A stretch of DNA of 7,690 nucleotides, taken from IMG/VR virus record IMGVR_UViG_2597490227_000004; one strand, written 5' to 3'. This document shows positions 2,025-2,555 of this stretch, piece after piece (position 1 is the first letter of the stretch; each line of letters opens with the position of its first letter). Origin of the DNA: a virus. Lineage: Duplodnaviria; Heunggongvirae; Uroviricota; Caudoviricetes. The position numbers and the translations under genes are program-made. The notes below the pieces were generated by a model, which saw only the letters and a program-made list of their open reading frames with translations, searched no databases and was not told the DNA's origin.

Positions 2025-2334
2025 TCTTGACCTTGTGTTGTGCGGATTGATATTCAGTGCTGATATTCACCTTTATAGCGAACACCTTTACCGGTTTATC
2101 GCCAAAGTGCGGATGTGTGATTGTCTTCACTTCATATCCGTCATACGGAACATCAATTCTGCGACTGGAATCGTCGCGCTTCGGATATCCCTTTGTGATA
2201 ATCAGGCGGTCATATTCCCGGAACATAATTCGCTTATTCCAGTAGTCATTACACAAGCGATACTCTTCCGTTTTCTCTCCGCGAATCATGGCATCGAAGT
2301 ATTCACTTTTAACAGCAAGTTGCAGGTTAGCCAT
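2008..2334 (-). CDS. ASCH-domain (PUA-like fold) protein, about 108 aa
   Basis: Translation contains IRGEKTEEYR, matching the ASCH hallmark GxKxxExR. ATG at 2332-2334 overlaps the TGA stop of the upstream TraR-like gene (TGATG), indicating translational coupling. Confidence 0.65.
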   Translation of the reverse strand: MANLQLAVKSEYFDAMIRGEKTEEYRLCNDYWNKRIMFREYDRLIITKGYPKRDDSSRRIDVPYDGYEVKTITHPHFGDKPVKVFAIKVNISTEYQSAQHKVKNVQSD

Positions 2335-2555
2335 CACTTAATCCCCCTTTGTTTGCGGATAAGCTCCAGATCTTGCTGGCAACTGGCGCAAGTCCGACAA
2401 CCCTGAACGGCCAGGCGTCTTCGTTCATCTATCGGATCGCCACACTCACAACAATGAGTGGCAGATACAGCCAGGTAGTTCAGGCGGCGCATTTTTATTG
2501 CTGTGTTGCGCTGTAATTCTTCTATTTCTGATGCTGAATCAATGATGTCTGCCAT
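2334..2555 (-). CDS. DksA/TraR-family C4-type zinc-finger protein (73 aa)
   Basis: Four-cysteine motif CxxC-x14-CxxC (CCECGDPIDERRRLAVQGCRTC) in a 73-aa protein, the size and arrangement typical of TraR-like proteins in lambdoid early regions. Confidence 0.75.
   Translation of the reverse strand: MADIIDSASEIEELQRNTAIKMRRLNYLAVSATHCCECGDPIDERRRLAVQGCRTCASCQQDLELIRKQRGIK

Follow-up and report, generated by a model that had tools for sequence, protein, structure and literature searches.

Known regulators of the TraR/DksA type

The closest relative with published experiments is Orf73 of phage lambda, called Orf2310 in ribosome-profiling work and studied by Gopalkrishnan et al. (2022, mBio; PMC9239242). 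The purified protein inhibits the rrnB P1 promoter with an IC50 of ~50 nM, like TraR and without ppGpp, and rpsT P2 is inhibited likewise; for both promoters this was found in vitro and in vivo (PMC9239242). Lambda Orf73 and DksA compete for the same site on the E. coli RNA polymerase (RNAP), and most of the activity is lost in the D3N and D6N variants (PMC9239242). The gene is expressed from pL, and upon pL induction an orf73-dependent decrease was seen, to 29% for pre-rRNA and to 45% for rpsT mRNA (PMC9239242). Lambda Orf73 also slowed the growth of the host and raised the burst size ~4-fold (PMC9239242). Activation of thrABC, argI and rpoH P3 was weak at most, and the lambda lytic promoters that were tested did not respond (PMC9239242).

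TraR of the F plasmid (PDB 5W1S, 6N57) likewise has 73 aa, with an N-terminal DxxDxA helix, a C4 finger of x17 spacing, an arginine pair and a C-terminal helix with a conserved glutamate. It comes from a conjugative plasmid and Orf73 from a phage, and at rrnB P1 the IC50 values of TraR and lambda Orf73 are equal. TraR activates host and tra promoters, whereas no clear activation of thrABC, argI or rpoH P3 was obtained with lambda Orf73. TraR R48 is directed to the secondary-channel rim helices and R49 to beta' Si3, and its C-terminal helix contacts the beta Si1 insertion (PMC9239242). E. coli DksA has the same PF01258 finger and DxxDxA logic, and competition has shown that it shares its RNAP site with the lambda allele of Orf73. 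It is, however, a protein of 151 aa that carries the motif at the tip of a coiled coil and needs ppGpp, whereas in TraR-size proteins, which are without a coiled coil, the acidic motif sits on a single N-terminal helix and the action is independent of ppGpp. In TraR and DksA alike, the motif extends into the region of the RNAP active site. The hallmarks listed for Orf73 in a modelling paper are DxxDxA, the C4 finger, an acidic residue in the C-terminal helix, and ExxRL, the form in which the ExxRK hallmark reads in lambda Orf73 (PMC8614690).

The orf73 reading frame

The window, the whole stretch of 7,690 nucleotides of phage DNA analysed here, holds on its minus strand a frame of 73 codons at 2334-2555, with the ATG start at 2555-2553 and the TGA stop at 2336-2334. 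Its product is MADIIDSASEIEELQRNTAIKMRRLNYLAVSATHCCECGDPIDERRRLAVQGCRTCASCQQDLELIRKQRGIK (73 aa). A Shine-Dalgarno-like AGGGA (2566-2570, minus strand), read from the sequence, lies 10 nt 5' of the ATG; it is unchanged in lambda and phage 21, and the phage 21 record marks a ribosome-binding site at the equivalent position.

Lambda Orf73 has the same length and is identical at 66 of the 73 residues (90%). The six cysteines, DxxDxA, ExxRL, the arginine pair and E64 are shared, and all seven substitutions (H27Y, Q28L, I30V, V49A, E61Q, S67R and S72I) fall outside the hallmark residues. The gene holds the same position in the pL operon of lambda, after orf60a-orf63-orf61, with an identical terminator-like hairpin and Shine-Dalgarno sequence in front of it. 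Homology to lambda DNA is 95.4% and begins at window position 2344, so that the last ~10 nt of orf73 lie outside it; the intergenic DNA is 95-100% identical. The same 95.4% identity was found for MW057783.1 (48,361 bp), filed as 'Campylobacter phage CJLB-4', which looks like a lambda genome or contaminant filed under another name.

Closer matches were found in other phages. Over window positions 2000-2900 the DNA matches phages ev207 and PhiR63_2 at 100% identity and phage 21 at 97.6%. In ev207 the gene is annotated as gp36, 'DksA-like zinc-finger protein', and in phage 21 as CPT_21_38, 'zinc finger domain protein', with a protein 100% identical to the one described here and a gene that has two synonymous changes. 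In both phages the neighbours of orf73 are those of the window.

A frame of only 73 codons might be a chance ORF or a decaying pseudogene of a cryptic prophage, and the RefSeq record of lambda bears no annotation for orf73, although the ORF is present in lambda (L001 3491-3712). The frame was compared by the Nei-Gojobori method with diverged homologs down to 74% identity, from lambda, a Stx1a phage, SfI, Lambda_2E9 and Shigella phage 75/02. For these five dN/dS was 0.10-0.33, while two more homologs were saturated at synonymous sites. Because of these values, and because the phage 21 copy carries synonymous changes only, orf73 is regarded as coding. The frame and its length are retained in homologs as distant as that of a Klebsiella phage (51% identity). 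Similar DNA (at least 80% identity) turned up in 3310 of 5426 complete E. coli genomes, with as many as six copies in one genome, and PGAP names the product there 'TraR/DksA family transcriptional regulator'. Expression of the lambda exo-xis ORFs has been confirmed by ribosome profiling (PMC8614690). The gene is under purifying selection; an accidental or decaying frame is rejected by this signal and deserves practically no credence.

Family assignment

The product passed the Pfam model PF01258 (zf-dskA_traR) at residues 34-64, with 36 bits against a gathering threshold of 24.9 (E=6.7e-9), and matched PHROG 54, 'DksA-like zinc-finger protein', over residues 1-70 (E=2.5e-25). The first-pass annotation had placed a 73-aa zinc-finger protein of the TraR/DksA type at 2334-2555, and both the extent of the ORF and its family were correct. 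With NCBIfam TIGR02419 (C4_traR_proteo) the match at residues 3-64 (E=8.7e-15) stayed narrowly under the cutoff, at 55.1 versus 59.7 bits, and with NF010268, the equivalog model of conjugal transfer TraR, it reached 24 bits of the 108 required. Orthology with F TraR was rejected on the latter score, and since the first model falls just under and the equivalog model far under its cutoff, the sequence is best described as that of a TraR-family homolog and not an F TraR ortholog. Identity to F TraR is only ~34%, and Orf73 has two extra cysteines.

Orthology with Orf73 of lambda, from the lambdoid exo-xis region, is borne out by the identity of 66/73 residues and by the syntenic position, with orf60a (DUF1317), orf63 (DUF1382) and the orf61 homolog directly upstream on the same strand. 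The gene is, with high confidence, an orf73 allele of a lambdoid phage or prophage of the phage-21/ev207 type, coding for a TraR-family binder of the RNAP secondary channel.

Some members of the family share little beyond the C4 finger, and a finger protein of this type might have no role in RNAP regulation. The PDB sequence match with the best E-value, YbiI (2kgo), is a protein of unknown function that covers the finger only (residues 31-66), and two C4-finger 'homologs', RSP0166 and SMc00049, do not act like DksA (PMC9239242). These two, however, are without DxxDxA and the C-terminal helix, whereas the product of this allele has both. It also aligns end-to-end with TraR, which was matched over its full length in the RNAP complexes of the PDB, and is 90% identical to an RNAP-binding inhibitor of rrnB P1. 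An inactive member consisting of the zinc finger alone was rejected on the presence of DxxDxA and the C-terminal helix, and a finger protein without regulatory action on RNAP is considered very improbable. We retain the assignment as a secondary-channel binder.

Functional residues and zinc finger

The sequence was aligned with lambda Orf73, with F TraR as taken from the PDB match and with the C-terminal part of DksA. Twelve residues were invariant in this comparison: D3, D6, A8, C35, C38, G39, I42, R46, C56, C59, E64 and K68. Conservation was counted in an alignment of 78 full-length relatives from the protein database.

The acidic motif D3-I-I-D6-S-A8 is encoded at 2532-2549 (minus strand), and in the family alignment D3 is kept in 74, D6 in 77 and A8 in all 78 sequences. 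An alignment of the coiled-coil tip residues had been proposed beforehand as a check; DxxDxA and the arginine pair were indeed present, but they belong to a protein with a single N-terminal helix and not to a coiled coil. The pair itself, R46-R47 (2415-2420, minus strand), is conserved in 77/78 and 76/78 sequences, aligns with R48 and R49 of TraR and sits inside E44-R-R-R47-L48, the Orf73 form of the ExxRK hallmark of TraR. The C-terminal helix (residues 57-70; 2346-2387, minus strand) contains E64, which aligns with E66 of TraR and is invariant (78/78).

Alignment with F TraR, DksA and YbiI identifies C35, C38, C56 and C59 as the predicted zinc ligands, which corresponds to C35-x2-C38-x17-C56-x2-C59 and places the globular finger region at 2379-2453 (minus strand). 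C35 and C38 are conserved in 77/78 relatives, C56 and C59 in all 78. The first-pass annotation had read the finger as CxxC-x14-CxxC. That string is literally present, as C35..C38-x14-C53..C56, but the family ligands have the x17 spacing, and C53 is an extra cysteine. The literature on lambda Orf73 agrees with x17 and calls C36 and C53 'extra' (PMC9239242).

The two extra cysteines differ strongly in conservation. C36 (codon at 2446-2448, minus strand) is variable and occurs in 18 of the 78 relatives, whereas C53 (codon at 2395-2397, minus strand) is kept in 76 of them. C53 recurs in homologs of ~40% identity from Vibrio and Pseudomonas phages, but F TraR and the proteins of Salmonella phage UPF_BP2 and Erwinia phage SOI901 do without it. 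This conservation suggests that C53 is functional rather than incidental. It might be an alternative or additional ligand, with the zinc site switching between C35/C38/C53/C56 and C35/C38/C56/C59, or a redox sensor, a speculation that we rate as doubtful. Such a switch, if true, might reshape the globular domain and account for the fact that proteins of the Orf73 type inhibit without activating. The only idea raised in published work on the extra cysteines is disturbed folding, and no argument appears to have been built there on how they are conserved.

Predicted structure

An AlphaFold model was built on the 78-sequence alignment. It replaced a single-sequence run, which was discarded for its pLDDT of 62.7 and its unstructured zinc region. 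The alignment-based model had a pLDDT of 81.9, rising to 93-96 in the finger region, with helices at residues 5-24, 44-49 and 57-70. In a Foldseek search against the PDB the top match was 6n57_M (TM 0.58, probability 1.00, E 3.6e-3, rmsd 5 Å) and the second 5w1s_M, both of which are TraR bound to E. coli RNAP; they were followed by YbiI and by DksA in an RNAP-rrnB P1 complex. Modest E-values are to be expected when an extended protein of 73 aa, modelled free, is compared with targets bound to RNAP. The predicted fold is TraR-like and closest to that of RNAP-bound TraR, and the modelled architecture of helix, zinc globule and C-terminal helix in ~73 aa resembles that of the same complexes.

Gene context

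The gene order on the minus strand, read leftward, is N, ral, the ea10 homolog (DUF2528), cIII, kil, gam, bet and exo, followed by orf60a, orf63, the orf61 homolog, orf73, an ASCH-type gene, a DUF4222 gene, xis and int. On the opposite strand sieB is located between ral and N. The antiterminator gene N lies at 7037-7309 (minus strand), its start being taken at M25 of a 114-aa ORF, after GGGAGGA; residues 23-114 of this ORF match Pfam PF25694 (N_peptide) with E=9.7e-33. The orf61 homolog (60 aa; 2749-2931, minus strand) gave a sub-threshold match to Pfam ZapA (E=0.0025, 18.5 versus 23.8 bits), probably by chance. Runs of N at 482-555 (74 bases) and 1299-1489 (191 bases) hide portions of the integrase and excisionase genes, and the ORF translations show stretches of X there.

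Directly downstream of orf73 lies the ASCH-type gene (2008-2334, minus strand), with a product of 108 aa that carries the RefSeq/PGAP name 'ASCH domain-containing protein' and gave no Pfam match at E<=0.01, the ASCH domain included. Its ATG and the TGA of orf73 share one base (TGATG), and the annotation of ev207 agrees with this 1-nt overlap, which suggests that the two genes may be translationally coupled. The DUF4222 gene follows at 1785-2024. In lambda, by contrast, ea22 and ea8.5 lie downstream of orf73, and orf73 of SfI and Lambda_2E9 is followed directly by the DUF4222 gene. The 3' end of orf73, at about 2334-2344 in the window, forms a mosaic junction at which the homology to lambda stops.

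Terminator-like hairpins and candidate signals of the leftward operon

In the gap between the orf61 homolog and orf73, a terminator scan and RNA folding located an intrinsic-terminator-like hairpin at 2605-2633 (minus strand), ~60 nt 5' of orf73. It has an 8-bp stem and a 3-nt loop, AGGGAGC-TAC-AGGCTCCTT, with a T-rich tail beginning with TTTT, and a predicted energy of -11 kcal/mol (z=-2.6). The same hairpin is present without change in lambda (~30673-30691) and with one stem-edge change in phage 21. It is enclosed by a 31-codon ORF (2562-2657), listed in the record of phage 21 as 'putative secreted protein'. The hairpin may be tL3 of lambda; neither of the lambda records annotates a terminator at this position, and the papers that name tL3 give neither coordinates nor sequence.

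Two further strong terminator-like hairpins with T-runs, at 5869-5890 and 5432-5449 (minus strand), flank the ea10 homolog and would fit the tL2 cluster of lambda. The terminator scan counted 10 terminator-like sites against 5.3 +/- 2.4 in shuffled sequences. Because hairpins of this kind lie between pL and orf73, expression of orf73 from pL probably needs antitermination by N, by read-through of these candidate terminators.

At the right end of the window a promoter scan for pL gave no sigma-70 match of at least 9/12. By eye, a weak candidate of 8/12 (TTGATC-17-TACTAT) was noticed upstream of two elements that precede N on the minus strand, a boxA-like GCTCTTTAA at 7444-7452 and a boxB-like hairpin TGGCT-GAAA-AGCCA at 7408-7421. 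Judged from the sequence, the pair (7408-7452) is a plausible candidate for nutL.

Proposed mode of action

We infer that this allele acts like lambda Orf73, on the grounds that all tested and hallmark residues are kept and that the two proteins are 90% identical. The ORF, its family membership, the hallmark residues, the purifying selection, the TraR-like predicted fold and the operon position are established here. The protein would bind within the secondary channel of the host RNAP and make no contact with DNA. Its N-terminal helix would place D3, D6 and A8 near the active site, the zinc-finger globular domain with R46/R47 would lie on the rim helices and beta' Si3, and the C-terminal helix would contact beta Si1. 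Such binding would change the kinetics of the open complex, by which promoters with short-lived open complexes, such as those for rRNA and ribosomal proteins, would be inhibited, and ppGpp would not be required. Located in the N-antiterminated pL operon, orf73 would be made early in lytic growth, and its product would redirect the cell from making ribosomes and increase the phage yield. RNAP binding, the promoter effects and the effect on burst size would in this way carry over from the experiments on the 90%-identical lambda protein.

Most of what the first-pass annotation had expected of the protein fits this picture. A likely secondary-channel binder is supported by the 90% identity to the RNAP-binding lambda protein with its hallmarks kept, and a shift of host transcription by early expression from pL has been published for lambda Orf73 (PMC9239242), from which it may be extended to this allele. 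Reprogramming of both rRNA and amino-acid promoters had been anticipated from the family; the former applies to lambda Orf73 (PMC9239242), the latter to TraR, whereas lambda Orf73 activates amino-acid promoters weakly at most. The targets had been considered to lie beyond what the sequence can tell, but they had already been published for the lambda allele, as had the experiments then proposed.

The main role of Orf73 might instead lie in the decision between lysis and lysogeny, or in a block of host replication initiation, with RNAP still as the target but without yield being governed by rRNA shut-off. The phage phenotypes on record conflict, with orf73 reported as 'pro-lysogenic' or as lowering the yield on infection (PMC8614690; discussed in PMC9239242). 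The former comes from another laboratory, in which deletion of orf73 lowered survival and lysogenisation (PMC8614690). By contrast, non-polar point mutants and an in-frame deletion gave a burst ~4-fold lower without Orf73 (PMC9239242). For replication, earlier work tied orf73, ea22, ea8.5 and orf55 to the inhibition of host initiation, and dnaA P2 is inhibited by lambda Orf73 in vitro with an IC50 of ~420 nM, but dnaA mRNA in vivo changed weakly at most (PMC9239242). A joint function with ea22 and ea8.5 cannot apply here, because other genes replace both in the window. A main role in lysogeny or replication is possible but, on this evidence, rather unlikely, and a contribution to phage yield through the shut-off of rRNA synthesis remains the preferred reading.

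The TraR/DksA family, its structure on RNAP and the function of the lambda allele have all been published, and the discovery value of this locus is small, as annotations of this very protein already exist for phage 21, for ev207 and for thousands of E. coli prophages. The near-invariant C53 is one loose thread. The practical value lies in the correct annotation: by analogy with lambda Orf73, this phage or prophage would carry a ppGpp-independent shut-off factor for the synthesis of host ribosomes.
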